Positions 1 through 54,216 of a DNA stretch of 61,341 nucleotides are shown here, in pieces (the first letter of the stretch is position 1; every line of letters begins with the position of its first letter). This stretch comes from an uncultured Gammaproteobacteria bacterium (lineage in GTDB: Bacteria; Patescibacteriota; Microgenomatia; UBA8517), in assembly GCA_964610395.1 (NCBI GenBank), contig CAZSXP010000001.1:1-61341 (forward strand), given 5' to 3'. Both the position numbers and the translations under genes were made by a program. Below the pieces are notes generated by a model that had not been told where the DNA came from, did no database searches, and saw only the letters and a program-made list of their open reading frames with translations.

Positions 1-1532
1 TTAAGCTTTTTGAGAAAGGCTTGGCTTATAAAAAGAAATCTCCTGTAAATTGGTGCCCTAAAGATGAGACTGTTCTTGCAAACGAACAGGTGATTGACGG
101 AAAGTGCGATAGGTGTGATACGGCTGTTATTAAAAAAGATTTGGATCAATGGTTCTTTAAGATTACTGACTATGCTGATAGATTAATAGATGGTTTGGAT
201 GGGATTGATTGGCTTCCTGAAGTTAAAATTCAGCAAAAAAATTGGATAGGCAGAAAGAAAACTAAAAAAGGAGTAACTTATCATATTCATGATTGGTTAA
301 TATCAAGGCAGCGTTATTGGGGTTGCCCAATTCCAATGATTTATTGCAAACACTGCGCAATATTGCAAGGTGAGACCTTGCAATCTGGGTGGTCGCCGGT
401 GCCTGAAAAAGAGTTGCCTGTACTTCTTCCAACGGATGTTGATTTTCTGCCTCATGGAGAATCACCAATTGCACGATCTACTACTTTCCAGAAAGATGTA
501 GTTTGTTCTAGTTGTGGAAAACCTGCTAAAAGGGAAGTTGATACCATGGATACATATGTTGATTCATCTTGGTACTTTTTAAGATTTTGTGATCCAAAAA
601 ATACAAAAGCATTTGCAGATAAAGATAAAATTATTCCAGTTGATGACTATGTTGGTGGTGGTCATATAGTTCAACATTTATTATTTGCCAGATTTTTTTG
701 GAAAGTGTTGTTTGACGCAGGATATATAGATAAAAAAGTTGGGGATGAGCCGTTCTTGAAGCTTCGAGCCCCTGGGTGGATATTGGGACCTGATTCCAGA
801 AAGATGAGTAAGAGATGGGGTAATATTGTCACGCCTGACGATATTTTTCCTAAGTTTGGTGCAGATACATTGAGAGTATATGAAATGTTTATGGGACCGT
901 TTGATATAGTAAAACCTTGGAGTATTACAGGAGTGGAGGGGGCATATAGATTCTTGGGTCGCATTTGGAGACTTTTTTTGAATTCTGCACACGATTCGGC
1001 ACTTTCGAATTCTTTGGTTTTGTCTAAAATGCATCAGACAATTAAAAAAGTAGGGGAGGATATTGAAAATTATAAATTCAATACTGCAATTTCCAGTATT
1101 ATGGAATTTGTTAATACGATTTCTGACGCCCATGTCAGTTCCTCACTCCTTCGGGTTGCTTCGCAGACCAGTCGTTCGGCTGCTGACAATAGGCTCGAAA
1201 TCATGACTGTGTTGTGTAAATTGCTTGCACCGTTTGCTCCGCATATGATGGAAGAGGTTTGGCACGAAGTATTGGGTAACAAAGAATCAATCCATTTATC
1301 AAAATGGCCTGAATATGATCCCAAATATTTAATTCAAAATGAAGTTACAATAGCAATTCAGGTTAATGGTAAACTAAGAGGGCAATTAATAATTAAGAAT
1401 GAAGAGTTAATAAATAAAAACAAAATAATACAACTTGCAAAGGAAGATAAAAAGGTGGCAAAATGGTTAAAGAGTGGAACAGTTGAAAAAGAAATTTTTA
1501 TTCCTAACAAACTCATCAATTTTGTTATATAG
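1..1532 (+). CDS. leuS: Leucine--tRNA ligase, 5' end cut off by window edge; CP1 editing domain absent
   Basis: VNWCPKDETVLANEQV, DWLISRQRYWG, DTMDTYVDSSWY, KMSKR, LAPFAPH, QVNGKLRG motifs; frame stays open upstream to the window edge (KLFEKGLAY). Confidence 0.97.
   Translation, partial: KLFEKGLAYKKKSPVNWCPKDETVLANEQVIDGKCDRCDTAVIKKDLDQWFFKITDYADRLIDGLDGIDWLPEVKIQQKNWIGRKKTKKGVTYHIHDWLISRQRYWGCPIPMIYCKHCAILQGETLQSGWSPVPEKELPVLLPTDVDFLPHGESPIARSTTFQKDVVCSSCGKPAKREVDTMDTYVDSSWYFLRFCDPKNTKAFADKDKIIPVDDYVGGGHIVQHLLFARFFWKVLFDAGYIDKKVGDEPFLKLRAPGWILGPDSRKMSKRWGNIVTPDDIFPKFGADTLRVYEMFMGPFDIVKPWSITGVEGAYRFLGRIWRLFLNSAHDSALSNSLVLSKMHQTIKKVGEDIENYKFNTAISSIMEFVNTISDAHVSSSLLRVASQTSRSAADNRLEIMTVLCKLLAPFAPHMMEEVWHEVLGNKESIHLSKWPEYDPKYLIQNEVTIAIQVNGKLRGQLIIKNEELINKNKIIQLAKEDKKVAKWLKSGTVEKEIFIPNKLINFVI
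362..384. repeat. REP-like 23-bp palindrome (RAYT-associated family) inside leuS
   Basis: ATTGCAAGGT-GAG-ACCTTGCAAT, perfect 10-bp arms; translated LQGETLQ. Confidence 0.9.
1123..1188. repeat. GC-rich nested hairpin segment inside leuS
   Basis: TGTCAG(1133)...CTGACA(1188) outer arms enclosing CTCACTCCTTCG-[GGTTGCTTCGCAGACC]-AGTCGTTCG; encodes atypical HVSSSLLRVASQTSRSAADN. Confidence 0.55.
1384..1411. repeat. Degenerate 7-bp tandem repeat in leuS
   Basis: AATTAAT AATTAAG AATGAAG AGTTAAT. Confidence 0.55.
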
Positions 1533-2070
1533 CCTCATAGGGCTCATTCTAGTCGGTTTTGGAGTCTTAGCATACAAAATAGACCTGTTTTCCTCGGGAG
1601 ATAAAGTTGAAGTCCTGACATCGACTACAGAAGTCCAAGATGGTGATAAAGAGATAGTTGTGGAAATTGTTGGAGCTGTTGAAAAGGCAGGAGTTTATAA
1701 AATGCATTTGGGGGATAGAATTGATGACCTTTTGATAATTTCTGGTGGACTTTCAGAAAACGCTGACAGGGATTGGGTAATAAAAAATATTAATAGAGCA
1801 AGTAAGTTAACGGACGGACAAAAGTTATATATTTACCAGATAGGAGAGGTAAAAGGTGTCTCAACTGATACCGAAGCAAATCCATCAGGTTTTATAAATA
1901 TTAATACAGCAAGTCTTAAAGAACTTATAGATTTACCTGAAATAGGCCAAGAACGTGGGAAAAACATCATTGAACAAAGACCTTACTCAAACACTCAAGA
2001 ATTAGTTTCTAAGGGAGCAATTAGTCAAAAAGTTTTTGATAAAATCAAAAATGAAATTACAGTATATTAG
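1474..2070 (+). CDS. comEA: Competence DNA receptor ComEA (TM, SLBB and HhH domains)
   Basis: N-terminal TM; VEIVGAVEKAGVY SLBB; ININTASLKELIDLPEIG HhH; adjacent to comEC; exact start uncertain. Confidence 0.88.
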   Translation: MEQLKKKFLFLTNSSILLYSLIGLILVGFGVLAYKIDLFSSGDKVEVLTSTTEVQDGDKEIVVEIVGAVEKAGVYKMHLGDRIDDLLIISGGLSENADRDWVIKNINRASKLTDGQKLYIYQIGEVKGVSTDTEANPSGFININTASLKELIDLPEIGQERGKNIIEQRPYSNTQELVSKGAISQKVFDKIKNEITVY

Positions 2071-7793: not shown

Positions 7794-7865
7794 TCGGAAT
7801 GGGCAGAATTGAACTGCCTGTCTCTTCGTCCCGAACGAAGCGTGATACCGATTCACTACATTCCG
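7794..7865 (-). tRNA. tRNA-Pro(CGG)
   Basis: Acceptor CGGAATG/CATTCCG, anticodon arm CTTCG-TTCGGGA-CGAAG, T-loop TTCAATT; CCA not encoded. Confidence 0.92.
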
Positions 7866-7917
7866 AGCAAAGCGAGGAATGCCAAGCTTAGCCGTAGGCG
7901 GGCTTACAGTCCGCTTG

Positions 7918-7989
7918 TGTCCTCATCATGAGTCGAACATGAATTTGAGGTTTAGGAAACCCCTGTTCTGTCCATTGAACTATGAGGAC
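7918..7989 (-). tRNA. tRNA-Arg(CCT)
   Basis: Acceptor GTCCTCA/TGAGGAC, anticodon arm GGGGT-TTCCTAA-ACCTC, T-loop TTCGACT. Confidence 0.92.
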
Positions 7990-8255: not shown

Positions 8256-8328
8256 TTGTTCTACCAGCGAAGCTGGCAAGCTTGCTTATCCATTGACCCC
8301 GATTAAATCGGGGTTGAGCTATAGCGGC
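8256..8328 (-). pseudogene. Degenerate tRNA 5' half interrupted by two palindromic insertions
   Basis: Minus strand GCCGCTATAGC-TCAA-[CCCCGATTTAATCGGGG]-TCAA-TGGA-TA-[AGCAAGCTTGCCAGCTTCGCTGG]-TA-GAACA; without the inserts it aligns to the tRNA-Arg 5' half GTCCTCATAGTTCAATGGACAGAACA. Confidence 0.6.
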
Positions 8329-10781: not shown

Positions 10782-11573
10782 ATGGCAAGAAATTATCCAA
10801 AAGTAGACCGAAAATATGGTTATATCCTAGGAATTAAGATATCTATCACTTCCAAGGAAGAAGTGCTAAATCTTATTAATTTGAGGCTAGAAAACAAAGA
10901 AAAGTTTTATATAGTAACTCCAAATCCTGAAAATTTACTACTAGCTACTAAAGATTGGTTACTGGCAAAAGCTATACGAAGGTCTGATTTGTCAATTCCT
11001 GATGGAATTGGATTAAAATTTGCATATAAATTTTTGCATAATGAAGATATTGAGATAATTAAAGGCAGGGAGTTGTTTTTAGAAGTAATTAAAATTGCAA
11101 ATGATCGTAAATTACGAGTATATCTCTTTGGAGGTGAGCATGGTGAACAAATTAAGACAAAGGAAGTGTTAGAAAAACAATATTCAAATGTAATATTTAA
11201 AACAAATTTTGAATTTCCTCAATATAACAAAAATTGTAAGCCTATCACGTATGAAGATAGAAATTTACACAAGAAGATAATTGGAGGTATAAAGCTCTTT
11301 GAGCCTGATTTAATCATTGTAGCTTTAAATACTCCAAAACAGGAAAAGTGGATTTATAGAAATTTTTTTAGGCTTAATGCAACAGGTGCTTTTGCTTTAG
11401 GTGGAACTTTTAATTATGTAGCAGGAAATATGAAATTGCCTCCTAAATGGATGGAAAAATTAGGACTTGAATGGGTCTGTAGATTAATTCAGGAGCCAAA
11501 GAGGTGGAGGAGGATAATTAATGCTGTGATAATCTTTCCTTGGAGCGTGTTTGTGTGGAAGTTACGAAAATAA
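10782..11573 (+). CDS. WecB/TagA/CpsF family glycosyltransferase
   Basis: VTPNPE, PDGIG, PKQEKWI, GLEWVCRLIQEPKRWRR. Confidence 0.93.
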   Translation: MARNYPKVDRKYGYILGIKISITSKEEVLNLINLRLENKEKFYIVTPNPENLLLATKDWLLAKAIRRSDLSIPDGIGLKFAYKFLHNEDIEIIKGRELFLEVIKIANDRKLRVYLFGGEHGEQIKTKEVLEKQYSNVIFKTNFEFPQYNKNCKPITYEDRNLHKKIIGGIKLFEPDLIIVALNTPKQEKWIYRNFFRLNATGAFALGGTFNYVAGNMKLPPKWMEKLGLEWVCRLIQEPKRWRRIINAVIIFPWSVFVWKLRK

Positions 11574-12083
11574 TCTCGCAAATAATTTTTTAGCCCTGTA
11601 TATTTTACCTTCTACTGCACGAGGAGAAATTTGGAGGATTATAGAAATCTCTTTATATGATAAATCCCTGTAGTATTTATACCAAAGTAATTTTCTTTTT
11701 TCCAAGGGCAATAAATCTAATACTTCATTAACTTTACCCCTTAATTCATTAAGCATAAACTGTTCTTCAGGCAACATTGCAAGGTGAGACCTTGCAATGG
11801 GGTCAAGTTGTTCGATTTGTGACCATTTTTTAAGTGTTGGAACGAAAAAGTGTGACCTGTAGTTTATTTGACCTTTATAATAATCTGCAATTTTATTTAA
11901 TGCAATTCTACAAAGCCATGTAAAAAAGGATGATTTATGTTTAAAAGTCTTATATCCTTTCCAAGCGGCTGTAAAAGTTTCTGTTACTATTTGATCTGCC
12001 ATTTCTGGGTTACTACCAATTCTTTTAAACACAAAACGAGTAAGAGGGGAAAAGAATTGTTTATATAATAAATTAAAGTTCAT
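11562..12083 (-). CDS. ECF-type RNA polymerase sigma factor
   Basis: Region 2 (ETFTAAW, FFTWLCRIALN) and region 4 (LSYKEIS, VEGKIYRAK). Confidence 0.9.
   Translation of the reverse strand: MNFNLLYKQFFSPLTRFVFKRIGSNPEMADQIVTETFTAAWKGYKTFKHKSSFFTWLCRIALNKIADYYKGQINYRSHFFVPTLKKWSQIEQLDPIARSHLAMLPEEQFMLNELRGKVNEVLDLLPLEKRKLLWYKYYRDLSYKEISIILQISPRAVEGKIYRAKKLFARLFS
11776..11798. repeat. REP-like 23-bp palindrome inside ECF sigma factor linker
   Basis: ATTGCAAGGTGAGACCTTGCAAT, identical to the copy at 362-384; translated IARSHLAM. Confidence 0.9.
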
Positions 12084-12759
12084 AATTTGCTTTTAATAAA
12101 AATATAGTATCTTTAATTAAATTCTTTTTAATCCAATCTTTGGTTTTATTATCAACTAAATCCCCAATACCTGAGAGGATATCAGATGGTGGATTTTTCT
12201 CTAGTAGTGCAAGACATCTTTTGAGATATGGAACAGTTTTTTTGTTGGTCCTGAATTCTAGAAGTTCATTATTTAAATTCCATTCTTCCTTCAACATAAA
12301 CCAGATATCGTAAATATCACGATTAGCCAAACTTTTTCTATCCAAGAGCGCTGTTAATTTATTAGCAAACATATCCTCACTTTTCATAATCAGTGAAGGA
12401 ATTCCCAAAAAACTTTTGACTTCATATTTATTTTTAGAAACTCTTTTTGAAATTTCTACTTTAAGTTGACTTAACCCTTTTTTGTAACTTAACAGCCAAA
12501 ATAAATTGTAATGTTTATCTTTGCTTTGTCTTAAGTCACCATACTTTTCGACAATTTTTGTAACCTTACTCAGTACAATATCTTTTTTTGATTCATCAAG
12601 TAGGTCAAAATCCAAATCGACACTAAAACGAGGGAGATTATAAAAAAAATACAATGCTGTTCCACCTTTGAAGCCAAGTACTGAGGCTATTTCAATATCA
12701 GAATAAATATCCTTTAAAATGTTAGTCATTATTGTGCGGTGTGAAGAAATCACTAACAT
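12073..12759 (-). CDS. AbiEii-family nucleotidyltransferase toxin (type IV TA)
   Basis: FKGGTAL, RFSVDLDF, ANKLTALLDR, RDIYDI motifs. Confidence 0.9.
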   Translation of the reverse strand: MLVISSHRTIMTNILKDIYSDIEIASVLGFKGGTALYFFYNLPRFSVDLDFDLLDESKKDIVLSKVTKIVEKYGDLRQSKDKHYNLFWLLSYKKGLSQLKVEISKRVSKNKYEVKSFLGIPSLIMKSEDMFANKLTALLDRKSLANRDIYDIWFMLKEEWNLNNELLEFRTNKKTVPYLKRCLALLEKNPPSDILSGIGDLVDNKTKDWIKKNLIKDTIFLLKANYEL

Positions 12760-13312
12760 AATTATTAAACCTCCTTTCCATTGCTTTATTATTATATATT
12801 TTTACTAAGTTTTTAGCGACCTTCCAGTTAACTTGTTCCAGATTATCAAAGTGATAGTTTTTAGACATATATACTCTGTCCAGAAACGCACGCTCTTTTG
12901 AAGCCATAGAATATCCATTAATGTTTTCTATTCCTCTTGGGTTATTTAGTATTTCATCCTTCATTTTTCTAAAACTAATAGTGTAATCACAAAGTTTGAC
13001 ATCTCTTGTTTGATAACTAATTACAAATATTGTTTTATCGTAATTTTGAAATGTTATGCCTTTTCTTTGGAGTACAGTTTCAAGGCTAATGTAAGACGGT
13101 GTAAAAATTTTATTTGCTGCTTCTAAAATTTCGTAACCATTATTTTTTGCATACAAACCTCTTTTTAGACTTTTCAAAACTCCTTTTTTAACGAAGTAAT
13201 TAATTCTTGATTTTAATTTATTTAAATTAGTTTCATTAAGTATCAATGATATCTCTTGAGTTGTAAAAACAGTATTTTTTGACGAATATAAGCTGTAGGT
13301 AAGACTTTTCAT
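12722..13312 (-). CDS. AbiEi-family antitoxin / transcriptional regulator
   Basis: N-terminal wHTH (LKRGLY), SYISLETVL, ASKERAFLD; directly upstream of AbiEii. Confidence 0.85.
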   Translation of the reverse strand: MKSLTYSLYSSKNTVFTTQEISLILNETNLNKLKSRINYFVKKGVLKSLKRGLYAKNNGYEILEAANKIFTPSYISLETVLQRKGITFQNYDKTIFVISYQTRDVKLCDYTISFRKMKDEILNNPRGIENINGYSMASKERAFLDRVYMSKNYHFDNLEQVNWKVAKNLVKIYNNKAMERRFNNYVSDFFTPHNND

Positions 13313-13399
13313 TACTTCCAGTTTACAAAATGATTTATTATTTGTCAATAGATGTAAGATTTGGTACAAATATATACCAATGGTACAATCAGTCTTAAT

Positions 13400-14149
13400 A
13401 TGAAGGATTTAGTTTTAGTTAAACTAGGTGGAAGTGTCATAACTGACAAGAGTAAACCGTTTACGGCTAGAATTGAAATTATACAAAAACTAGCAAAAAA
13501 GATTAAAAAGTTTAAAAACAAAAATACTGATTTAATAATTGGGCATGGTTCAGGATCATTTGCTCATGTTCCTGCAGCAAAATATCAAACTCAAAAAGGA
13601 ATGATTAACAAGAATAGTCTTTGGGGTTTATCGCTAACAGCAGACGCTGCAATTCAAATAAATAGAATAGTGGTTTCGGAATTTTTGAAGCTAAAAATTC
13701 CTGTTATATCCTTTGCTCCTTTAAGTTTTATTTACGAAACTAAGATTATTACAGAGCATATAAAAAATGCATTAGATATTGGTATAACACCAGTAATTTA
13801 CGGTGACGTGGTGATGAATAAAAAGCAAGGATTTAAAATATATTCAGGAGAGAAAACCTTGGATATATTAGCAGTTAAATTAAGTAAATTGTATAAAAAA
13901 ATAAAAATAATTTATTACACAGATACAAATGGAGTTTATGACGATAAAAACAAAACAATTCCAATTGTTACCCCAAGGAATATTAAAGACATTAAAAAAT
14001 ACTTAACGGGAAGTAACAAAACAGATGTTACGGGGGGAATGATGCATAAAGTGGAAGAAAGCCTAAAGTTGGTCAAAAATCTTGATGCTGAAGTTTACAT
14101 TATGAATGGTTTAAGTAGGGGAAAAGTAACTAAAGTTTGTAAAGGTTAG
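13400..14149 (+). CDS. Isopentenyl phosphate kinase (amino-acid kinase superfamily, archaeal type)
   Basis: KLGGSVITDK, HGSGSFAH, PVIYGD, DVTGGM motifs; beside prenyltransferases. Confidence 0.85.
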   Translation: MKDLVLVKLGGSVITDKSKPFTARIEIIQKLAKKIKKFKNKNTDLIIGHGSGSFAHVPAAKYQTQKGMINKNSLWGLSLTADAAIQINRIVVSEFLKLKIPVISFAPLSFIYETKIITEHIKNALDIGITPVIYGDVVMNKKQGFKIYSGEKTLDILAVKLSKLYKKIKIIYYTDTNGVYDDKNKTIPIVTPRNIKDIKKYLTGSNKTDVTGGMMHKVEESLKLVKNLDAEVYIMNGLSRGKVTKVCKG

Positions 14150-14374
14150 TCAATTTCTGGATCTTGCTCTTCACCTTTCAAAATTTTCTCTCTCTGTTCT
14201 TCTGTTAAAAATGGATTAATAGATACATCTATGTGAACAGAACGTGTTTCTGTTCCAATCGAAAATAACACTACCTCTTCACCCTATTTGGGTTTTCGAG
14301 AATCTGTCAAGTTTATATTTAATGATCCGTCGCCTGCACCCATGAATGTCATGTCTTGTATTATACATCATTTG

Positions 14375-15253
14375 TCAATATTGTCTATTCAGAATAAAAT
14401 CAATTAATTCTATAAGTTTTGTTCTTGCTGGTTCATTGGACAAAAACTGCAAATCTTTATCAAAAACTGTCTTAGCAATATTTTTTTCTTTTTCTGCCAA
14501 CTTTTTGGTGTATTCAACACCTTTTTCTGTAGCTAAAGTGGATTTTCCCTCTTTTTTATCTTGTTCTAAATCTAATATATCATCAACAAGTTGGAAACAT
14601 CTACCTAAATGTAATCCAAATTCAGTAATTTTATCAAGCTGACTTCCTGTAGCCTCAGCTAAAATTGCTCCAAGCCTCATTGGTCCTGCGATGGAGTAGT
14701 ATGCAGATTTACTATCTGCCATAAAGAAATATTTTTCATCTGTAATTTCTGATTTATTATTCGTCCAAATTTGTTCAACCGCCTGACCAAGCGTTGTTCT
14801 AAGCATAATTTTATAAAATTCATCTGAGATTTTTTTATTATCACAATCAATTATCACTTTCCACATAATATTTTCTAAGGTATCACTAGCGTTTATCGCA
14901 AGCTCTAGTCCATTGATTTTGTGAAGTGTTGGTTTACCTCGTCTTTCATCTGAATTATCTTCAATATCATCAGATATAAGTATCCATTCCTCAGAAAGCT
15001 GCATAGCAGCAGCAACTTTAACAGCAGACTTTTCATCCAGACCTAGAGCTTCTGCTGTCAGTAAAACAAGTGTAGGTCTCAAATACTTACCTTTTCTTTC
15101 TGGATAATCTCTATTTATTTCCCAATATTTAGAAACTTCTGTTTTAAATTTTATTGGTATTTGAAACTGTTTTGGATACTTAAGATCTTTTAAATAACTA
15201 TCAATAATTGGCCAAACAAGCTGTTTTGTTTCCTCAAGTGTTTTTTGTATCAT
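14375..15253 (-). CDS. Polyprenyl (trans-isoprenyl) diphosphate synthase
   Basis: GKYLRP, DDIED..ERRGKPT (FARM), FQLVDDILD (SARM). Confidence 0.93.
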   Translation of the reverse strand: MIQKTLEETKQLVWPIIDSYLKDLKYPKQFQIPIKFKTEVSKYWEINRDYPERKGKYLRPTLVLLTAEALGLDEKSAVKVAAAMQLSEEWILISDDIEDNSDERRGKPTLHKINGLELAINASDTLENIMWKVIIDCDNKKISDEFYKIMLRTTLGQAVEQIWTNNKSEITDEKYFFMADSKSAYYSIAGPMRLGAILAEATGSQLDKITEFGLHLGRCFQLVDDILDLEQDKKEGKSTLATEKGVEYTKKLAEKEKNIAKTVFDKDLQFLSNEPARTKLIELIDFILNRQY

Positions 15254-15275
15254 TAATGTATTATAATATATCGCG

Positions 15276-16505
15276 ATGTCTAAAGTATTAATACTTCCCA
15301 AAAATACTGTAATTCCAAACCATATAGCTATGATTTTGGATGGCAACCGGAGATGGGCTAGGGCTAGAGGGTTAAAGCCTTGGGAAGGTCATTATCATGG
15401 CTATTTGGCAATTGAAGCACTTGCGAAAGCAGTTAGGAATTTAGGGGTGCACACCTTCACTGTTTGGGCATGGTCAACAGAAAATTGGGATAGACCACAG
15501 GAAGAAATAGATGCAATTATGAATTTATTCAGAAAAGCACTTAAAGAAAAAGAAAATGAATTTCATAAAGATAAGGTAGCCCTTGTGCATCTCGGTCGCA
15601 AAGATAGATTGCCAGAAGATATTCAAAAAATGTTAATTAAGATTGAGGCTGAAACTGCAAAATACTCAAAAAATCATATTTATAATTTAGCTGTTGATTA
15701 CGGTGGTCGAAGTGAGATTGTTAGGGCAACTCAAAAAGCAATTGACTCAGGTATAAAATCAAAAGATTTAAACGAAAAAACATTTGAAAAATTCTTAGAT
15801 ACATATGGTCAACCATATCCAAATCCAGATTTATTTATTAGGACTTCAGGTGAACAAAGAACCTCGGGTTTAATGCCATGGCAGATGGTTTATGCAGAAT
15901 ATTATTTCGAAAATACTCACCTTCCTGATTTCACACCAGAGAAATTAAAAGAGGCAATTTTAGATTATTCAAGGAGAAGAAGAAGGTTTGGGGGGAATGA
16001 CGCGATGGAACATTTTACATTTGATCCACATTTAGTTGCTAATCTTGAACTTAAATGGTGGCGTTTAAGCAAACTGCCGTATGGTGTAAGCCTTATGGAA
16101 TATACTGTAAGGCACATGAGAGAACAATATAATTTATCTAAGGAACTTGCAAAAAATGCTGCAGGCTATATGCTTCAGGCTATAAGATATCAAGATATAA
16201 ATAAATTAGACAAGGCAAAAAATTCTCTGAAGAAATTTTACAAGCTTATAAAAAGTGAGTTAAAACTTGCATTTGAACCTGAAATAGTTGCGTCCTTAGA
16301 AGTTGAAATGAGAAAACAAAAAGGGGAGAACGAAAAGTTGGAAAAAGAACATTTAGCAGAAGTTTATAGAATATCTCTTTTTCAAGCTGCCAAAGCTGCT
16401 CATTTAAGAGTCTTGGCAAATGTTGCTAGAAATCGTGGGGATTGGACAAAAGCAGAAGATTATTTGGAGAAGTATTATTCAGCTTTAAAGGAAAGAGTGG
16501 CTTGA
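15276..16505 (+). CDS. uppS: Undecaprenyl diphosphate synthase with ~170-aa C-terminal extension
   Basis: HIAMILDGNRRWA, WSTENWDRP, YGGRSEI, DLFIRTSGEQRTSG, RRRFGG followed by an extra helical domain. Confidence 0.93.
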   Translation: MSKVLILPKNTVIPNHIAMILDGNRRWARARGLKPWEGHYHGYLAIEALAKAVRNLGVHTFTVWAWSTENWDRPQEEIDAIMNLFRKALKEKENEFHKDKVALVHLGRKDRLPEDIQKMLIKIEAETAKYSKNHIYNLAVDYGGRSEIVRATQKAIDSGIKSKDLNEKTFEKFLDTYGQPYPNPDLFIRTSGEQRTSGLMPWQMVYAEYYFENTHLPDFTPEKLKEAILDYSRRRRRFGGNDAMEHFTFDPHLVANLELKWWRLSKLPYGVSLMEYTVRHMREQYNLSKELAKNAAGYMLQAIRYQDINKLDKAKNSLKKFYKLIKSELKLAFEPEIVASLEVEMRKQKGENEKLEKEHLAEVYRISLFQAAKAAHLRVLANVARNRGDWTKAEDYLEKYYSALKERVA

Positions 16506-17901
16506 TACAAATCTAAAAGATTTTGGTTATTGGGGAAGTATTTAAGCGTATCTTTTATAAATTCTTCTGCTACATCAAACTCTTTTTGTTTAATTAATAT
16601 TTTTGCATAATTTTCATAGGCTAAGTAATAGTTTCCATTATCAATTGACTGAATTTTGAAAATGGTAACTAGCTTCATTAAATTTACCTATTCTATATAG
16701 TTCTACACCTAGATTATTTTCTAAGTTAAAATCATTTTTTACAATTTTGGCATCGTGAGAATATAGTGTTAAACCATTTTTCCAATCAAAAGACCTAATA
16801 AAAGTAACAATTGAAAAGATTAATATTAAAAGAACTGCAATATAATAAGTTATTTTTTTAAATTTAAGATGACCAAGTATGCCCAGTAGTCCAAACATAG
16901 GTAAATAAAACCATCTACCAGATATGGTAACGTCAAGTGGAAATATTTGCATGTGCATAGCCAAAGACAATATAAATAAAGTTAAAAAGAAATAATAACT
17001 TTTGCTTTTTTGAAAAGTAAAGAAGATTAAGATAGTTAAAAATAAGATACAAAGAATTAGAGGCAACCAAAAGTCAGACAAGCTAAAAGAAGTTACGATC
17101 CAATGTTGGTTGGGGACAAGATTAGTTGGAAATATCAAATTAGAAAAATAATACCAAGCCATTTTAGGAATAGAAAGTATTCTATCAAATAAATTTAATT
17201 TAGAAATTGCAGACATTTGGTCTGAAGAAAAGCCAATTTTTGCAATATAAAATCGCATTACGCTATAGATTGATATACTAAAAATGGATGGGAGCCAACT
17301 GTCATAAAAAAAGAGTAATAATTACGAAAATGATTCCAGTTTCTTTGGAAAGAAGAGAACATAAAAGTAGTAACGTAATTAATAATTTACCACAAAGTGG
17401 CAAGCTTTGCTTATTCTTTTTATATATTGTAAGTAAAAGTGCTAAGCTTCCAAAAAAGAAAAATAAAACATCTTGAAAATTGGCTGCATAAAAAATAACT
17501 TCAGAATAAAGAGGATGAATTAAAAATAGAAGCGAGAGAATAAAAGATTTATTTTTATCAAAAAAATACGAAAATATTAAATATATTATTATTGCGCTTA
17601 AAATATGGACTGTTAATGAAAATAAATGAAAAAAGAAGGCTGTTGAACCAAAAAGAGAGTAGAGAATAGAGAAACTTAAAGTCATTAGTGGTTTATAATA
17701 ACTTCCAAGTAGATTTCCTGTTCCACCTGAATTAAATGCTCCACCTGAGAAAAAAACAGGAAAGTTTGAGATAGAGTGGATTAAAGTATTATTAACTATC
17801 TGTTCCTCATCGTCCCAAACAAAGCCATTTCCAAGTGAAGGTAAAAAAATAAAAAATCCAATTAAAGAAATTATTAAGATGATATTTAGCTTGCTTTTCA
17901 T
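16475..17901 (-). pseudogene. TMTC/PMT-like multi-TM glycosyltransferase with TPR tail, broken into three frames
   Basis: FVWDDEEQI, YYKPL, FLIHPLYSEV, SKETGI (17302-17901); RWFYLP, DWKNGLTLY, ENNLG (16641-17258); TPR tail (16475-16678); break at T7 run 17306-17312. Confidence 0.75.
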
Positions 17902-17980
17902 TAAGACTAATTATAATCTTTTTGTTAAACATCTTCTTGACAGAGCTGTTACTGATTGTTATATTGTGATTAATTAACAT

Positions 17981-18196
17981 ATGGATCAATCTAACAAGAA
18001 AGCAGTCAAACTAGAAAATATGCCAGACCTTCTCACTGTGCGTGAAGTATCAGAATTATTAAGAGTTTCGCCATTAACAATTAAAAGATGGGGCAAGCGT
18101 GGAAAATTGCCTGCAATTAGAATAAATTCAAGAGGGGATAGACGTTACAAAAAAGAAGCAATCCTCTGGCTCCTAGGTATGCAGGCAAAAGATTAA
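17981..18196 (+). CDS. Small excisionase/MerR-type helix-turn-helix DNA-binding protein
   Basis: LLTVREVSELLRVSPLTIKRW..GKLPA..GDRRY; TTGACA(17937)-17-TATATT(17960) promoter upstream. Confidence 0.9.
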   Translation: MDQSNKKAVKLENMPDLLTVREVSELLRVSPLTIKRWGKRGKLPAIRINSRGDRRYKKEAILWLLGMQAKD

Positions 18197-18235
18197 GTTT
18201 TTTGGTATACTATACACATACTTTCTTAAAACTCT

Positions 18236-18880
18236 ATGGATATTTTCTTTGTTAGACATGCTATCGAAAACTCTATTGCTTCAGGTGTGCCTGAAAATAC
18301 GATAGTACTACTATTATTACTGCCAATTGTGGCTACAGTTATAGCAGGTATTCGTCAAATCGTAGGAATTCGTGGTTTTGGTATATTTTTACCTGCCGCA
18401 CTTTCAATTACATTTGTGGCTATTGGTCCAATTTTAGGAATACTTTTATTTTTGGCTATAGTTGCAATATCTACAGTAGTAAGGTTTGTAACAAGGAAAC
18501 TTAAATTAAAACTTCAATATTTACCAAGAATGGCACTTATATTATGGTTTGTGTCACTTGGGGTTTTGGGGATTATTTTTACAACAAACATAAATGTTTC
18601 TATTTTTCCAGTTCTTATCTTAACTTTATTGGTTGAAGACTTCACAAAAATTCAACTTGGAAAATCAGTTAAGACTGCAATCGGTATAACTTATCAGACT
18701 TTAATACTAGCTCTTGTTTCATATCTACTCTTAACTTATGTACCTTTTCAAAAAATGGTATTAAATAATCCTGAAATAAGTTTACTGGGAACTCTAGTAA
18801 TAGATATTATTTTGGGTAAATATTTAGGGCTTAGGTTTACAGAATATTATAGATTTAGAAAACTCATAAATAGCAAATGA
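18236..18880 (+). CDS. 7TM membrane protein of the ATP-grasp/transglutaminase-associated type
   Basis: RQIVGIRGFGIFLP, YLPR, FPVLIL, LGKYLGLRFTEYYRF pattern; translationally coupled to ATP-grasp gene. Confidence 0.85.
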   Translation: MDIFFVRHAIENSIASGVPENTIVLLLLLPIVATVIAGIRQIVGIRGFGIFLPAALSITFVAIGPILGILLFLAIVAISTVVRFVTRKLKLKLQYLPRMALILWFVSLGVLGIIFTTNINVSIFPVLILTLLVEDFTKIQLGKSVKTAIGITYQTLILALVSYLLLTYVPFQKMVLNNPEISLLGTLVIDIILGKYLGLRFTEYYRFRKLINSK

Positions 18881-20190
18881 AAAGCTCGTCAATTTTAGGA
18901 CTTAACGCTAGGAGAGTTTTGTTTACTGGAAAATATAATAGCCGTGCTGCTAAGAAAATTGCTGATTCAAAACTTCAAACTGATAGGGTCTTAAGATATG
19001 CAAATGTTCCTCATCCAACTATATTTAAAAAATTTAGAACGCCAGCTGCTGTTTTTGATTTTAAATGGTCTGATCTACCTGATGCTTTTGCACTCAAGCC
19101 TTCTCGTGGACTTGGTGGCGAAGGAATTATAGTTGTCAAAAAAAGAATTTCTGATGATGTATGGTTAACAAGCTCAAAGAAAAGAATAACCGCTGAAGAT
19201 TTAAAATTACATACACTAGATATTCTTGAAGGAGCTTTTTCAATGGGCAACGAACCAGACAGTGCTTTTATCCAAGAATATGTAGGAAGACACTCAAGCT
19301 TCAGAAAATATGCATTTCGTGGAACACCTGATGTTCGCGTAATTGTTTTTAATAAAATTCCAATAATGGCGATGCTTAGACTTCCGACAAAAGAAAGTGG
19401 GGGAAGAGCCAATTTACATCAAGGAGCACTTGGACTTGGTATTGATATTGCAACAGGAATTACAACAAAAGCTATTCAAAATAATAAAGAAATAATCCTA
19501 AAACCCGACACAAATAGGAAGTTACGAGGAATTAAAATACCTTTTTGGAACAAGATATTAGAGACTGCAGTAACAGGACAAATAGCTTCAGGACTGGTTT
19601 ATGCAGGAGTTGATATTGTATTGCATCCTGAAAAAGGACCACAAATAATTGAGCTAAATGCACAACCAGGGCTTTCAATTCAGCTTGCAAATATGGAAGG
19701 ATTAAAGAAAAGGTTAGAAAGGGTTGATGATATTAATGTAATAGATGCTATACATGGAGTTAAAATTGCAAAAGCATTATTTGCCAGTAAATTTGTTCAT
19801 CGTGTTAAAAATACTGAAGACGCCAAAACAATTCAAGCAATTGAAGAGATAAAAGTAATAGATGTTGAGGGAAGATCTAAAAGAGTACTTGCAAAGATAG
19901 ATACTGGTGCATGGAGTTCTACAATTGACATTAATTTGGCCAAAAAAATGGGCTTACTTCGTAAAAATAAAATAATTATGACCAGAAGAAAGCTTTCCTC
20001 TCTTGGAGAGGAGCAACGGCCAGTCATTTCTTTGTCTTTTTGGCTTGCTGGGCGTAAAATTGTAACAAGAGCAACAGTTAGTGACAGAAAATTATTAAGA
20101 TACGATGTTTTAATAGGTAGAATAGATTTACAAGGTTTTTTAATAAGTCCAACGATTGAAAAAGAAAATTTAGTCAAAGCAAAATGGTAA
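18877..20190 (+). CDS. Alpha-L-glutamate-ligase-like ATP-grasp fused to C-terminal retropepsin-like protease
   Basis: ILGLNAR, KPSRGLGGEGI, AMLRLPT.ESGGRANLHQG, ELNAQPGLSIQLAN; C-terminal AKIDTGA...LIGR. Confidence 0.9.
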   Translation: MKSSSILGLNARRVLFTGKYNSRAAKKIADSKLQTDRVLRYANVPHPTIFKKFRTPAAVFDFKWSDLPDAFALKPSRGLGGEGIIVVKKRISDDVWLTSSKKRITAEDLKLHTLDILEGAFSMGNEPDSAFIQEYVGRHSSFRKYAFRGTPDVRVIVFNKIPIMAMLRLPTKESGGRANLHQGALGLGIDIATGITTKAIQNNKEIILKPDTNRKLRGIKIPFWNKILETAVTGQIASGLVYAGVDIVLHPEKGPQIIELNAQPGLSIQLANMEGLKKRLERVDDINVIDAIHGVKIAKALFASKFVHRVKNTEDAKTIQAIEEIKVIDVEGRSKRVLAKIDTGAWSSTIDINLAKKMGLLRKNKIIMTRRKLSSLGEEQRPVISLSFWLAGRKIVTRATVSDRKLLRYDVLIGRIDLQGFLISPTIEKENLVKAKW

Positions 20191-20996
20191 TTTTAATACT
20201 TACATCCGGAAATGTAGCTAAACTTGACGGTTTCAAAGATAAAGGCGTAACTTTGGGAAGTTTTGATGATATAAACTATAGTTCTGATTCTTTTGACTTA
20301 TATTATAAATCTGATATCTTAAATCAGTTTTCAGTTATCTACTTCCGGATGGTTGGAAAAAGTTTAGAAATTGCAACATTAGTTTCTAATTACGCGGCTA
20401 AAAATAATATTAAAATAATTGATGAAGTGTATTCGAATAGTTTACTAATGCCCGTATCTTTGGGTAAGTCATTAGAATTAAAAAAGCTTAGTGAAGCAGG
20501 GATTAAAATTCCACGAACTCAGTTCGGTAGTTTTGATGGTATGGAATTTCCATATATTGTAAAATCAACAACAGGTCAAAAAGCTAGGGAAGTTTGGCTT
20601 GTTAATAGCAAGGAAGAATTAGAAAGCCTTAAATCTAAAAAATTTGAGAAAAATAAATTCTACTTTACACAGGAGCTAATTCCTAATGCAAGAAGAATTA
20701 GAGTTTTAGTAGTAGGTGACAAAGCCGTCGGCGCAATCGTAAGACAGACCAAATGGAACAAAGATGAAACAAAAGAAACATTAATGCCAGTTCCAGAAGA
20801 TGTGGCCAATTTGGCCGTGTCTGCGACTAAAGTGGTAGGATTAAACATCTCGGGAGTTGATATTTTGATTAATAACAAGACAAATGAGATGTTTGTTATT
20901 GAAGTAAACGCTGCACCTAGTTGGAAATTAATTAATAAATATTGTGGAGTAATTGTTGAAGATGAAATCATTAAATATTTACAAACAAAAATTTAA
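20184..20996 (+). CDS. RimK-like ATP-grasp ligase
   Basis: PYIVKS, QELIP, IRVLVVG, SGVDIL, IEVNAAP. Confidence 0.88.
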   Translation: MVILILTSGNVAKLDGFKDKGVTLGSFDDINYSSDSFDLYYKSDILNQFSVIYFRMVGKSLEIATLVSNYAAKNNIKIIDEVYSNSLLMPVSLGKSLELKKLSEAGIKIPRTQFGSFDGMEFPYIVKSTTGQKAREVWLVNSKEELESLKSKKFEKNKFYFTQELIPNARRIRVLVVGDKAVGAIVRQTKWNKDETKETLMPVPEDVANLAVSATKVVGLNISGVDILINNKTNEMFVIEVNAAPSWKLINKYCGVIVEDEIIKYLQTKI

Positions 20997-21585
20997 GAAA
21001 TTTGGAGTAAGCCCAGAGGCCTTGCAATGGAAAAGCAAAGGTGCGGCACACCAAAGATTTCGCCAGTTTTGGGCGGAAATTAATTTTGACAATAAAAATG
21101 TTTTGGATGTTGGCTGTGGATTTGGAGAATTAGGTAATTTCTTAACCAAAAGGTATGAAAATGTATCATATAAAGGCATCGATATCATGCCAGAATTTAT
21201 AGAGAATGGAAAGAAAATTTACCCTAGCTTAAACCTTGAAATAGGTGATTATTTTAACCATCCAAAAGGCGAAATCTACGATACCATAATTTGTTCAGGT
21301 GCGTTAAATAGTAATTTTGAATCAGAAAAAGAAAATAGACTTTTTAGAAAAAATGCTATAGAAACAATGTTTCTTCATACGACTAATGTATTAGCGTTTA
21401 ACATGTCAGGTGGCCATCCTGCAAAGAAAAACCCGCCTGACGGCAAGATAAGCAGTAATATTTGGTATTCTGATAGCTTAGAAATTTTAGAATATTGTAT
21501 GACCTTAACTCGTCGTGTGATCCTACGCCAAAATTACCACCCATCCGATTTTACAATATTTATGTACAGAACAAAATCAAAATAA
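20962..21585 (+). CDS. Class I SAM-dependent methyltransferase
   Basis: VLDVGCGFG motif I, YKGIDI, DTIICSGALN. Confidence 0.9.
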   Translation: MKSLNIYKQKFKKFGVSPEALQWKSKGAAHQRFRQFWAEINFDNKNVLDVGCGFGELGNFLTKRYENVSYKGIDIMPEFIENGKKIYPSLNLEIGDYFNHPKGEIYDTIICSGALNSNFESEKENRLFRKNAIETMFLHTTNVLAFNMSGGHPAKKNPPDGKISSNIWYSDSLEILEYCMTLTRRVILRQNYHPSDFTIFMYRTKSK

Positions 21586-21587
21586 AT

Positions 21588-22011: not shown

Positions 22012-22020
22012 AGGTGAACT

Positions 22021-22059
22021 ATTGCAAGGTCAGTTAATTGCAGGGTCAGACCCTGCAAT
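22021..22059. repeat. REP palindrome plus half-site at RAYT 3' end
   Basis: ATTGCAAGGTCAG half-site (22021) then ATTGCAGGGT-CAG-ACCCTGCAAT (22037-22059). Confidence 0.9.
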
Positions 22060-22719: not shown

Positions 22720-22732
22720 GATTTAAGTATAC

Positions 22733-22755
22733 ATTGCAGGGTCTGACCCTGCAAT
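22733..22755. repeat. REP palindrome upstream of RAYT
   Basis: ATTGCAGGGT-CTG-ACCCTGCAAT; loop orientation inverted relative to the 22037 copy. Confidence 0.9.
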
Positions 22756-30996: not shown

Positions 30997-31002
30997 TAAT
31001 TA

Positions 31003-37354: not shown

Positions 37355-38832
37355 CGACATTTAATCGACAGCAATCATGGCTTTCTTGGTTTTTAAGGGG
37401 AGTTTTACTCTTAGGTTTTTTTGTTTTAATAGGAAGGCTTATAGATCTTCAACTAATCAAAGGGGAGTATTACAGAAAATTATCAGAAGGAAACAGAATA
37501 GAAAGAATTAAAATTAAAGCCCCTAGAGGAAAAATATTAGCTCGTGGTGGTGAAGTTTTAAGTGGGTCTAATTTTTCTCATCTAATTGGTTATTTAGCTG
37601 AGACTAATGCCAGTGAAGTTGGGAAAATTGACCCAAAATGTATTGAAAAAGGTGCTTATAAACTAGGACAAATTGTAGGTCGTGGGGGACTTTCTGAATA
37701 TTATAATTGTCATTTGACAGGTGTTGATGGGGAAGAATTGATAGAAGTTGATAGTTTGGGTAGAAAATTAAGAGTGATTGGCACTAAAGTGCCCATCGCA
37801 GGACGCGATGTAAAAACAAATATTAATTTTGATTTACAAAATACTATTGCAACAGAGATGTCTGGAAAAAGTGGATCGGTTATTGCAACAGACAAAAATG
37901 GGGAAGTATTAGCTCTTTTTTCATCACCATCTTTTGATACAGACGATATCCCTAAAAGTTTAAATGATCCAGAACTTCCATTATTTAATAGAAGTATTGG
38001 AGGTTTATATCATCCGGGGTCAATATTTAAACCTTTAGTTGCGATAGCTGCACTAGAAGAAAAAAAGATTGATAAAGATTATAGATTTGTAGACACCGGA
38101 GTTGTAACTGTTGAAAGTATCTATGGTAACTATTCATATAGCAACTGGTATTTTACCCAATATGGTGGGGCAGAGGGTGAAATTGATTTAACAAAAGCAC
38201 TTGCTAGATCAACAGATACATTCTTCTATAAAATTGGTGAATTTGTTGGTATTGATAATCTTGTAGATTGGATGAAAAATTTTGGTTTAACTAAATTAAC
38301 AGATATTGATATTCCTGGAGAAATTATTTCTCTTACCCCATCTCCTGATTGGAAAGAAAAAGTAAAAGGAGAAAGATGGTTTTTGGGTAATACATATCAT
38401 TTTTCAATAGGACAGGGAGACCTTGCCCTAACCCCTGTTGGAATTCATAGAGCAAATCTTGTTATTTCAAATGGTGGTAAATTTTGTGACCTTAAAATTG
38501 TGGGAGAAACAAATTGTCAAAAAACAAAAATTAAAGAGGAAAATATTAATTTAGTAAAGGAAGGTATGAAAAAAGTATGTGAGGTGGGTGGAACAGGGTT
38601 TACATTTTTTGACTTTAGTGAGAAACATAATGGTATTGAAGTAGGATGTAAGACAGGAACAGCAGAAACAAATGAAGATAACAAAACTCATGCATGGTTT
38701 ACTTCCTTCGCGCCACTTGAAAATCCTGAAATAATGCTAACTGTAATGGTTGAAAAATCTGGAGAGGGAAGTAAAGTTGCAGGTCCAATTGCAAGAAATA
38801 TAATGGATGAATATTTTAAGGTCCGACCTTGA
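37342..38832 (+). CDS. mrdA: Penicillin-binding protein 2 (class B transpeptidase)
   Basis: APRGKI, PGSIFK (SxxK), STD (SxD), KTGTAE. Confidence 0.92.
   Translation: MQTLATFNRQQSWLSWFLRGVLLLGFFVLIGRLIDLQLIKGEYYRKLSEGNRIERIKIKAPRGKILARGGEVLSGSNFSHLIGYLAETNASEVGKIDPKCIEKGAYKLGQIVGRGGLSEYYNCHLTGVDGEELIEVDSLGRKLRVIGTKVPIAGRDVKTNINFDLQNTIATEMSGKSGSVIATDKNGEVLALFSSPSFDTDDIPKSLNDPELPLFNRSIGGLYHPGSIFKPLVAIAALEEKKIDKDYRFVDTGVVTVESIYGNYSYSNWYFTQYGGAEGEIDLTKALARSTDTFFYKIGEFVGIDNLVDWMKNFGLTKLTDIDIPGEIISLTPSPDWKEKVKGERWFLGNTYHFSIGQGDLALTPVGIHRANLVISNGGKFCDLKIVGETNCQKTKIKEENINLVKEGMKKVCEVGGTGFTFFDFSEKHNGIEVGCKTGTAETNEDNKTHAWFTSFAPLENPEIMLTVMVEKSGEGSKVAGPIARNIMDEYFKVRP
38818..38830. repeat. Core of REP palindrome at the mrdA 3' end
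   Basis: AAGGT-CCG-ACCTT, same core as the dnaX copy; supplies KVRP next to the stop codon. Confidence 0.65.
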
Positions 38833-38841
38833 TAGATAAAC

Positions 38842-52884: not shown

Positions 52885-53260
52885 AATTAATGTTACAAAA
52901 CAATCTAATTATCCTGTTAGTGGGGTTAAGGTAAGAAAATATCTTCAAAAATTTTTTAATGAACATGGTATAGTGTCAAGTGCAGAATGTCATGTTTCTC
53001 TTGTGGGAGAAGAGAAGATGCTTTCACTTGCTAAACGATATTACAAGGATAACAAACTGCACAATGTTTTTTCATTTGTAGAATCAGAAGTAGGAAATTT
53101 TAAGAATGTAAGTAATATCATGCAACTTGGTGAAATCGTAGTTTGTTTCCCCGTTGCCTTAAAAGAAGCTAAACAAGAAGGAAAATTAATTGAAGAAAAA
53201 GTGTTAGAACTTGTAGGGCATAGTGCCTTGCATCTATTAGGTATTCATCACAAAGAATGA
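52877..53260 (+). CDS. ybeY: rRNA maturation endoribonuclease YbeY
   Basis: NVFSF, LGEIVVC, HSALHLLGIHH. Confidence 0.9.
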   Translation: MVKINVTKQSNYPVSGVKVRKYLQKFFNEHGIVSSAECHVSLVGEEKMLSLAKRYYKDNKLHNVFSFVESEVGNFKNVSNIMQLGEIVVCFPVALKEAKQEGKLIEEKVLELVGHSALHLLGIHHKE

Positions 53261-54216
53261 CAACTCTGTATCTAAAATATCGTCCACAAACAATTGATGA
53301 AATCGATATAACTTCAGTTCGCGCCTCACTTACTAATATTTTAAAATCAGGAAATATTCCTCATGCATTTCTTTTTGCTGGTCCAAAAGGAACTGGAAAA
53401 ACATCACTAGCTCGAATTTTAGCAAAAGCCATTAATTGCGAGTGCAAAGATTGCAAGGTCCGACCTTGCAATAAATGCGAACAGTGTAAATCGATTACAA
53501 GTGGAAATAATATAGATGTAATTGAAATGGACGCGGCAAGCAATAGAGGAATTGATGATGTTAGAGCTCTTCGCGATATTGTAAAACTAGCTCCAGCAAA
53601 TTCCAAAGCTAAAATATATATTATTGATGAAGCCCACATGTTAACAACAGAAGCCTCTAACGCCCTATTAAAGACCTTGGAGGAGCCACCAGCCCATGTC
53701 TACTTCATATTGGCAACAACTAACCCTGAAAAATTAATCGATACCATAAAAAGTAGAACAACAGTTGTGCAATTTACTAAAGCTACAGACCAAGAGATAA
53801 AGAGATCTCTTGAAAGAATAATTAAGAAAGAAAAATTTGTAATTAAAACTGAAGAAATAGATAAAATTATAAAAATTTCAAAAGGGTCTTTCCGTGATGC
53901 AGTAAAGATTTTGGAGCAATATATTAGTGACAAAAGTTTTTTAAATAAAGAATTAGAAATTGATATTTATGATCTTATTCTTTGTTTAACCAAAAAAGAT
54001 CTTAACAAATCGCTTGAAATAATTAAAAAAGCAAATAATATCGAAAATTTAACCGATCAGATCGTAGATAATTTGCATGAGAAATTAATTAAAGAAGAAG
54101 CTTATGAATTAATACCATTAATAGAACTTATTTTGGCTTCAAAAGAAATGGCTAAATATAGTCCAATTGAAGAATTACCTCTAGAGATTGCCATAATAAA
54201 ATGGTGTAATCTTTAA
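53257..54216 (+). CDS. dnaX: DNA polymerase III subunit gamma/tau (N-terminal AAA+ part)
   Basis: KYRPQT, GPKGTGKT, DAASNRGIDD, DEAHML, LKTLEEPP. Confidence 0.96.
   Translation: MTTLYLKYRPQTIDEIDITSVRASLTNILKSGNIPHAFLFAGPKGTGKTSLARILAKAINCECKDCKVRPCNKCEQCKSITSGNNIDVIEMDAASNRGIDDVRALRDIVKLAPANSKAKIYIIDEAHMLTTEASNALLKTLEEPPAHVYFILATTNPEKLIDTIKSRTTVVQFTKATDQEIKRSLERIIKKEKFVIKTEEIDKIIKISKGSFRDAVKILEQYISDKSFLNKELEIDIYDLILCLTKKDLNKSLEIIKKANNIENLTDQIVDNLHEKLIKEEAYELIPLIELILASKEMAKYSPIEELPLEIAIIKWCNL
53450..53472. repeat. REP-like 23-bp palindrome inside dnaX zinc module
   Basis: ATTGCAAGGT-CCG-ACCTTGCAAT; translated CKVRPCN. Confidence 0.88.

Follow-up and report, generated by a model that had tools for sequence, protein, structure and literature searches.

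A RAYT-type enzyme and its 23-nt hairpin, present mostly within genes, in a Woesebacteria-like genome

The RAYT locus and its hairpin family

The stretch of DNA analyzed here, called the window throughout, is the initial 61 kb (61,341 nucleotides) of contig 1 (CAZSXP010000001.1) from the genome of a tiny groundwater bacterium. This genome, for which we use the handle G000, comprises 695 kb in 22 contigs with 32% G+C and is 99% complete. The window carries a gene for a REP-associated tyrosine transposase (RAYT; REP, repetitive extragenic palindrome) and full copies of a 23-nt hairpin that borders this gene, lies inside it and is found in the reading frames of other genes. Comparison with orthologues showed that the hairpin occupies most of its host genes in place of an ancestral stretch of similar length and has been added to the protein-coding sequence at two sites. 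The features of the window that belong to the system are the following.

22030 to 22719, minus strand: gene for a RAYT-like HUH/Y1 tyrosine transposase of 229 amino acids, the sole copy in the genome
22733 to 22755: REP upstream of the RAYT gene, intergenic, 14 nt before the start codon
22527 to 22549: REP inside the RAYT open reading frame (ORF), codons 57-64, read LQGLTLQ
22037 to 22059: REP at the RAYT end, forming the last eight codons (IAGSDPAI) ahead of the terminal Asn codon and the stop
22021 to 22033: half REP ATTGCAAGGTCAG, left arm and loop, just past the RAYT stop
362 to 384: REP in leuS, read LQGETLQ, net gain of 10 codons
11776 to 11798: REP in a sigma-70 r2/r4 factor gene, read IARSHLA, net gain of eight codons
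32412 to 32434: REP in fmt, read IAGSDPA, in place, common to G000 and the related genome G002
53450 to 53472: REP in a dnaX-like clamp-loader gene, read CKVRPC, the right arm being Pro-Cys-Asn codons
5217 to 5272: two degenerate cores, AAGGTCTGACCC and AGGGTCAGACCT, in the argS linker
38813 to 38835: degenerate copy spanning the stop of a penicillin-binding protein (PBP) transpeptidase gene

The seven full copies in the window (at 362, 11776, 22037, 22527, 22733, 32412 and 53450), already recognized in a preliminary description of this DNA, match ATTGCARGGTNNNACCYTGCAAT with 0 mismatches, and the degenerate cores reported there at 5217 and 5250 in argS and at the end of the PBP gene (38813) are likewise present. 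In the whole genome of 695 kb, ATTGCARGGTNNNACCYTGCAAT occurs 14 times without a mismatch and once with one mismatch. The pattern ATTGCARGGT-NNN-ACCYTGCAAT has seven matches in the window and none in 100 dinucleotide-preserving shuffles of it, while an unbiased census of perfect GC-containing palindromes in G000 returned 44, compared with 0-7 in 20 shuffles; on these two counts a chance origin was rejected. The 23-nt hairpin family is by far the largest among the 44. As had been noted, the arms co-vary: 10 perfect copies have the G..C pair and four the A..T pair, and a mixed state was found in 0 of 14. Folded as single-stranded DNA, the copies form a stem of 10-12 bp with a 3-nt loop (-10.6 to -12.5 kcal/mol, z -4.5 to -7.2). 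Outside the 23 bases the flanks of the copies have nothing in common, and the full copies in G000 are singletons, not inverted doublets. No consistent pattern in the orientation of the loop bases was apparent by eye, the surroundings of the RAYT gene included.

The 229-aa protein reaches a Y1_Tnp Pfam score of 48.3 bits (cut-off 23), and the REP_Tyr_transpos model (NF047646) is its best NCBIfam family. The residues His86 and His88 of the HUH motif and Tyr146 are invariant across 54 aligned homologues. An AlphaFold model of the protein (predicted local distance difference test score, pLDDT, 88.5) has as its top Foldseek match 4er8_A, the E. coli RAYT-REP complex (E 3.4e-7, template modelling score 0.64 on the target), followed by the IS608 and ISDra2 TnpA structures. 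Sequence searches of the PDB with the protein gave at most weak ISDra2 TnpA matches, and none with the single-protein query. Its identity as a RAYT-like transposase, as originally proposed, is upheld by the NCBIfam ranking, the fold match to 4er8 and the pairing with the hairpin described below. An IS200-type insertion sequence was rejected, since the gene is present in a single copy (one match genome-wide) and scores 19 bits on the NCBIfam IS200 model, whose cut-off is 55. Among 17 related loci that were tested, the four closest have the same two genes on either side of RAYT, and this gene order indicates that RAYT is vertically inherited. One of these neighbour genes contains a 32-nt palindrome, AGGTCCTGGAATTGAACCCAATTCCAGGACCT (window 23619-23650), which recurs at the corresponding position of four or five related loci.

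The RAYT gene had been described as flanked by hairpins in inverted orientation. The copy at 22733 indeed lies outside the gene, at a position that recurs in related RAYT loci (about -25 by midpoint), but the copy at 22037 does not, since it codes for the RAYT C-terminus. The two can be called inverted only insofar as orientation rests on one central base, A versus T. The REP-encoded segments of the enzyme coincide exactly with the stretches modelled at low confidence (residues about 50-70, and residues 221-229 with pLDDT <50).

Hairpins in host genes and among relatives

Of the 15 copies in the genome, 13 lie inside long ORFs, at a genome ORF fraction of about 0.91. Two of them are hosted by the RAYT gene itself, and the 11 others are dispersed, in frame, in housekeeping genes. 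The host names proposed for the window are borne out by Pfam, which assigns a class I tRNA synthetase with anticodon domain to leuS, Sigma70 r2 and r4_2 to the sigma factor, Formyl_trans_N/C to fmt, DNA_pol3_delta2 to the dnaX-like gene and Y1_Tnp to the gene at 22030-22719 on the minus strand; the genes with degenerate cores are recognized as argS (tRNA-synt_1d and DALR) and a PBP transpeptidase (gene at 38813). Beyond the window the hosts are pheT, uvrA, uvrC, radA and the genes for a PduO-type adenosyltransferase, a methyltransferase and an RNase H-fold protein. The encoded peptides are those given before (IAGSDPA/IARSHLA, LQGxTLQ and CKVRPC), and a stop codon is absent from all three frames. 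The first frame is used at six or seven sites, the second at six and the third at one. Selection at the peptide level was rejected as the cause because one DNA element is translated in three frames.

The dispersed copies are not enriched in genes but merely not excluded from them, and it is this non-exclusion that is unusual. In G025, a complete genome from another genus of the same family, only 6 of 24 copies of one REP family lie in ORFs (binomial p 4e-14 at its ORF fraction of 0.90; Fisher p 2e-4 in comparison with G000), and they often form inverted pairs about 39 nt apart, which is the classical extragenic pattern. In a second REP family of G025, ORFs contain 8 of the 14 copies (p 0.11 for the difference from G000). 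The comparison with G025 suggests that a mostly coding REP family is a peculiarity of the lineage of G000.

The 11 host proteins were aligned with their orthologues, which were drawn for fmt and dnaX from 16 genomes reaching other families and for the other nine hosts from up to five genomes (G001, G002, G003, G004 and G007), some genes not being found everywhere. The hairpin had been proposed to insert peptide cassettes into protein loops. This applies to two of the 11 sites: leuS is longer by 10 codons than in four of five congeners, and the sigma factor gene is longer by eight codons than in three of four. At the same position of leuS, G007 has an independent 16-codon insertion with another palindrome, ACCTTAAAGGGTCAGACCCTGAAAGGT, which is read TLKGQTLKG. 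It does not apply to the nine other sites, where the change was neutral or near-neutral in length and reused ancestral codons. In pheT, PduO and the RNase H-fold gene the length is exactly that of all congeners, and the length of uvrC is unchanged relative to four of five. The site in fmt belongs to a segment whose length does not vary across the order, and the gene is one codon short of 13 of 16 orthologues; radA falls short by one or two codons, and uvrA stays within one codon. In the methyltransferase gene, the segment has been replaced and is five codons shorter overall. The reuse of ancestral codons is visible in the left arm of the fmt copy, which consists of conserved Ile-Ala-Gly codons, and in dnaX, where the site is a variable loop and the Pro-Cys-Asn codons of the right arm are conserved in 16 of 16 other orthologues. 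At the RNase H-fold gene, the EIEGSDPAN of the congeners already agrees with the motif at 15 of the 20 informative positions. In argS, the presence of the cores goes with a linker that is longer by 4-7 codons.

Apart from the hairpin site, LeuS (window 21-1532) aligns gap-free between G000 and G002, whereas G004, G007, G003 and G001 carry about 300 nt more near query residues 80-81. Because the congeners are longer there, LeuS of G000 and G002 seems to be without a segment of about 100 amino acids.

G003 belongs to the same genus, is 97% complete and has no RAYT homologue that we could find. The palindrome is absent from it at 11 of 11 orthologous sites, as expected from the preliminary description, and the best motif scores at these sites are 3-13 of 20. 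With scores of at most 13 of 20, the finding that had been named as contradicting the proposed system, namely the same nucleotides in RAYT-lacking relatives, was not made. At the nine in-place sites, the mean best score in G003 is 10.6, compared with 9.6 in random 42-nt windows (resampling P about 0.012). A gradient of similarity with phylogenetic closeness was considered as a sign of gradual build-up and rejected, being trivial for any G000 sequence.

Orthologous sites carry different variants of the hairpin. At the uvrA site, G000 has its own type, G002 a CAAGGTGACACCTTG type, and G007 and G004 a TLKG type; G001 and G003 have no palindrome there. At the uvrC site, the arms are of the G..C type in G000 and G002 and of the A..T type, with a GAG loop, in G007. 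The PduO site shows a compensatory pair difference between G000 and G002, the methyltransferase site in G007 reads ACAGGGTTGCACCCTG, the loop is enlarged at the radA site of G002, and the gene for a large protein on contig 9 harbours variants in both G002 and G001, the G000 form being decayed. The leuS, dnaX and uvrA sites differ between G000 and G002, the closest relative of G000, and six sites are common. At these six, 128 of 138 positions of the 23-mer are identical, compared with 1174 of 1485 in the flanks (150 nt of coding sequence per side; Fisher p 3e-5), and the differences within the hairpin are mostly in the loop. Given these identities, the hairpins are kept or re-made with greater fidelity than the surrounding synonymous positions.

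Of 61 related genomes, 40 encode RAYT homologues, in many cases several paralogues that have diverged from one another, the closest loci being in metagenome-assembled genomes of Candidatus Woesebacteria, Microgenomatus and Patescibacteria. We compiled 58 RAYT loci: 12 from the homologue search, 9 close loci and 40 that were picked among about 130 homologue matches as full-length and without stops, minus 3 duplicates or fragments. Palindromes were scored at three places, about 25 nt before the start, 15-30 nt past the stop and inside the ORF. At 30 of the 58 loci, a lineage-specific palindrome of the locus' own occupies at least two of these places. The upstream and downstream places have a common palindrome at 18 loci, and an internal copy matches a flank at 23. 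These internal copies fall at two positions of the alignment, about 60-65 (14 loci; aa 60 in 12 and aa 65 in two) or about 154-156 (eight loci), with one at the start (aa 0). The palindromes differ by lineage and include TTGCARGGTC.GACCYTGCAA, CCTTTAAAGG..., TGACAGGGTC..., CGCAAGGAGAGACCTTGCG, ATCACAC...GTGTGAT and others. Five of the 61 genomes contain the motif exactly as in G000, with 14, 13, 4, 1 and 1 copies. Where there are 14 and 13 copies, the orthologous RAYTs are intact and 77% identical to each other, while G007, with four copies, has a RAYT orthologue from which the first 60 codons are deleted along with the hairpins upstream and inside; a TCAT microhomology borders the deletion. 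As judged from sequence comparison, the pairing of RAYT and hairpin is well supported and general across this clade; the main evidence that the two belong together is that the palindromes co-vary with the RAYT lineage.

In one locus of G002 (contig C51, 3200-4400), four REP copies lie in about 1 kb, interleaved with two tRNA genes. The G002 draft breaks inside fmt (C37/C52) and argS (C43/C51), at or beside palindrome sites. Since its contigs end at such sites, copy counts in draft genomes are likely underestimates.

Origin of the hairpins and relation to known systems

Comparison among genomes establishes the pairing of enzyme and hairpin, the coding location, the presence or absence at orthologous sites, the mostly length-neutral origin, the reuse of sites and the excess conservation of the hairpin. 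We interpret the system as a REPtron in a Woesebacteria-like (Patescibacteria) genome, made up of one RAYT-type Y1/HUH enzyme and its cognate 23-nt hairpin. The RAYT would recognize the single-stranded hairpin as well as quasi-hairpins at other sites and would drive a conversion-like process of copy and replace with the resident hairpin, which would keep the copies within one genome alike. In this process the hairpin would mostly overwrite a stretch of similar length and keep those ancestral bases that already fit. Its three open frames encode short, loop-like peptides, and selection would retain only the in-frame products in tolerant loops. We assign a probability of roughly 60% to such RAYT-driven recognition and replacement followed by selection for in-frame products, a mechanism that we infer from comparing sequences.

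A broader proposal, which we put forward only tentatively, is that RAYTs of this Patescibacteria clade, instead of pasting hairpins, overwrite quasi-palindromes with the current master hairpin of the genome (hairpin-targeted conversion) and that the internal RAYT copy is part of the system. Such conversion would explain the variant differences at the uvrA, uvrC, leuS, PduO and methyltransferase sites, the likeness of copies within a genome and the preserved protein length. The RAYT-internal copy, located in one of two fixed loops across an order, might for example be a self-target that limits or tunes RAYT expression.

If the RAYT instead acted on a mobile cassette, it would paste the 23 nt and a few bases into loops, and later deletions would trim the products back. 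The codons gained in leuS and the sigma factor gene relative to four of five and three of four congeners, the independent 16-codon insertion of another variant in leuS of G007 and the longer argS linker around the cores (4-7 codons) all agree with such pasting. However, pheT, PduO, the RNase H-like gene and uvrC match the length of REP-free orthologues and have tightly conserved flanks, the fmt segment is constant in length out to other families of the order, and one arm in dnaX and in fmt consists of codons conserved in 16 of 16 other orthologues. An exact compensating deletion at every such site is unlikely, and we consider this model quite improbable. The in-place origin and the reuse of ancestral bases would also be accommodated by an independently selected motif, for instance an mRNA hairpin or a signal of the binding or uptake type, that arises by mutation and selection or by biased recombination. 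The RAYT would then not be the spreader, and its gene would merely have the motif in common with the others or use it for its own regulation. The stronger conservation of the hairpin relative to the coding flanks is consistent with this, and so is the leaning of the hosts to repair and replication (uvrA, uvrC, radA, dnaX and the RNase H-like gene), a bias reportedly similar to that of uptake sequences. Yet about 15 copies per 695 kb are far below the numbers of uptake signals, the motif changes by lineage together with the palindromes of the RAYT loci (30 of 58), there are fewer copies where the RAYT is shortened (G007), and two sites are true insertions. We consider a selected motif without a role of RAYT in its spread rather unlikely.

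Old insertions could also have been fixed in a shrinking genome in which intergenic copies were deleted and coding ones protected, with a domesticated or idle RAYT and nothing moving any longer. Relics of this kind would fit the six sites common to G000 and G002 despite a flank divergence of about 21%, the synteny of RAYT in close relatives and, weakly, the lack of polymorphism in contigs from other samples. But 14 copies are perfect, the sites in leuS, dnaX and uvrA differ between G000 and G002, and the catalytic residues of RAYT are intact. Moreover, at common sites the divergence of the hairpins is about a third of that of their flanks, synonymous positions being counted, so decay alone is not enough, and we regard the relic explanation as unlikely.

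Several observations weigh against RAYT-driven replacement or soften the evidence for it. No common palindrome was found by the criterion used at 28 of the 58 RAYT loci, and the enzyme scores 47 bits on the REP_Tyr_transpos model, below the cut-off of 80, although this is its best family. A GTAG/CGTC tag, which a characterized RAYT is said to need, was not found at a fixed place, and the tetranucleotide occurs within 8 nt of only 2 of 15 copies. About 15 copies per 695 kb is a low number for a REP, and the counts are small. The ORFs were called by a crude greedy script and cover about 91% of the genome, though all 11 hosts have Pfam domains; when the three RAYT-linked copies are left out, 11 of 12 dispersed copies lie in ORFs, as in random placement (binomial p 1.0). 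The excess similarity of the sites in G003 before the hairpin is modest and expected under any in-place origin, whatever the driver, and the stronger conservation of the hairpin could be plain motif selection. Finally, metagenome contigs from four groundwater runs covering 11500-31499 gave no direct sign of activity, with no gain, loss, indel or interpretable joint at the four copies covered, but they were fragmentary and do not suffice to show absence; one low-depth joint touching the copy at 11776 was seen in one run, at 85% likeness, a signal too slight for interpretation.

REPtrons are reportedly made up of RAYT genes with REP hairpins in their flanks, as in E. coli and Pseudomonas. The present system resembles them in its single-copy Y1/HUH enzyme bracketed by a hairpin that is dispersed in the same genome, and in a fold nearest to the E. 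coli RAYT-REP complex. It differs in that there is no GTAG/CGTC tag and that the copies number about 15 rather than hundreds, are singletons and lie in ORFs in 13 of 15 cases. The overlap of the flanking repeats with the ends of the enzyme gene is a further likeness, as the accessible part of Di Nocera et al. (2013; PMC3733652) describes repeats flanking RAYT genes that overlap the gene ends. The extra copy in the enzyme's own frame, at a conserved position, is a difference, as it does not appear in that part of the paper.

The preliminary description had taken REPs to be mainly extragenic and coding REPs with a cognate enzyme to be new. This background was incomplete: as far as the accessible text goes, Di Nocera et al. 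(2013) describe GTAG and CGTC REPs within genes of several species with RAYT-bearing genomes, many of them in uvrA, uvrB, dnaE, recBCD and tRNA synthetase genes and some at the same site of a given gene. On the strength of that text, coding REPs with a cognate enzyme are already known. The likeness extends to translation within repair, replication and tRNA synthetase genes, here uvrA, uvrC, radA, dnaX, leuS and pheT. The intragenic REPs covered there are the minority within a largely extragenic family, 'interrupt' ORFs and are often dimers of 20-30 aa, whereas the hairpins described here are a coding majority, single and mostly length-neutral replacements. In the same portion of the paper we found neither a mostly coding REP family, a length-neutral in-place origin or variant switching at orthologous sites, nor a RAYT-internal hairpin at fixed positions across an order. 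Nothing relevant to these points was among the papers listed by literature searches on RAYT with Patescibacteria and on RAYT with gene conversion or de novo origin, and neither these listings nor that text contained a description of RAYTs from Patescibacteria.

With classical REPs and REPINs (REP doublets forming hairpins) the hairpin family has in common that it is a short palindrome in multiple copies, but it is without their GTAG/CGTC end tag, their extragenic location and their inverted doublets as the replicating unit. Among the Rickettsia palindromic elements, RPE-1 is said to measure about 100-150 bp and to add a peptide segment, and we know of no cognate enzyme for these elements. The likeness lies in in-frame palindromic repeats within functional genes of a reduced genome, and the difference in the length of 23 nt, the cognate RAYT and the addition of at most two codons at 9 of 11 sites. 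The Rickettsia elements are also mentioned in the part of Di Nocera et al. (2013) that was accessible. TnpA of IS200/IS605 elements has the same Y1/HUH fold and recognizes subterminal hairpins as single-stranded DNA; here, by contrast, there is a single gene copy, the whole element is not repeated and it is the hairpin, not the gene, that spreads. DNA uptake sequences and cyanobacterial HIP1, for which no linked transposase is known, reach copy numbers in the hundreds to thousands. They are similar as short motifs that arise in place in coding DNA by substitution-like change, and they differ from the present hairpin with its roughly 15 copies and its tie to a RAYT.

What appears distinctive, with the mechanism taken as inferred, is a REPtron whose hairpins are mostly coding and have mostly arisen by in-place replacement. 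To our knowledge, the route by which REPs multiply is still unsettled and the extent to which they invade genes is poorly known. The data indicate replacement, not insertion, as the main route. Comprising a single enzyme, a single 23-nt hairpin and some 15 sites, the system is small and tractable, and its relatives provide clean states before and after the change. In a genome that is about 9% non-coding, the hairpins live in essential genes while protein length is hardly affected. If the enzyme does drive the replacement, this would amount to a natural, sequence-directed rewriting of short coding stretches and would explain the concerted evolution of REPs. The conserved hairpin in the RAYT reading frame is a candidate for self-regulation.

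Other palindromes and features

Short-armed AAGGTCNGACCTT cores occur in G000 as intergenic pairs or a triplet with spacings of 23-29 nt, and may be an older, REPIN-like layer of the hairpin family. Their positions are:

contig C2, 30538 and 30567
contig C12, 10840 and 10868
contig C21, 1313, 1336 and 1359
contig C8, 16004 and 16033

A further palindrome, CCCGATTNAATCGGG, has seven copies in G000, six of them intergenic, and these may be terminators or a regulatory site:

contig C1, 8296 (window 8296-8314) and 102208
contig C3, 58612
contig C5, 7175
contig C6, 10746
contig C10, 19462
contig C21, 1063

A second palindrome family, ATCACACCCGGCGGGTGTGAT, has four copies in G000, three of them in ORFs and all outside the window:

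contig C1, 72900
contig C6, 1814 and 3854
contig C9, 20317

Palindromes of the form ATCACAC...GTGTGAT, which are like ATCACACCCGGCGGGTGTGAT, border a distant RAYT subclade in other genomes. As G000 has no RAYT of that subclade, its ATCACACCCGGCGGGTGTGAT copies may be orphans. The window also contains six tRNA genes in three groups, at 7794-7989, 29671-30202 and 31056-31126.

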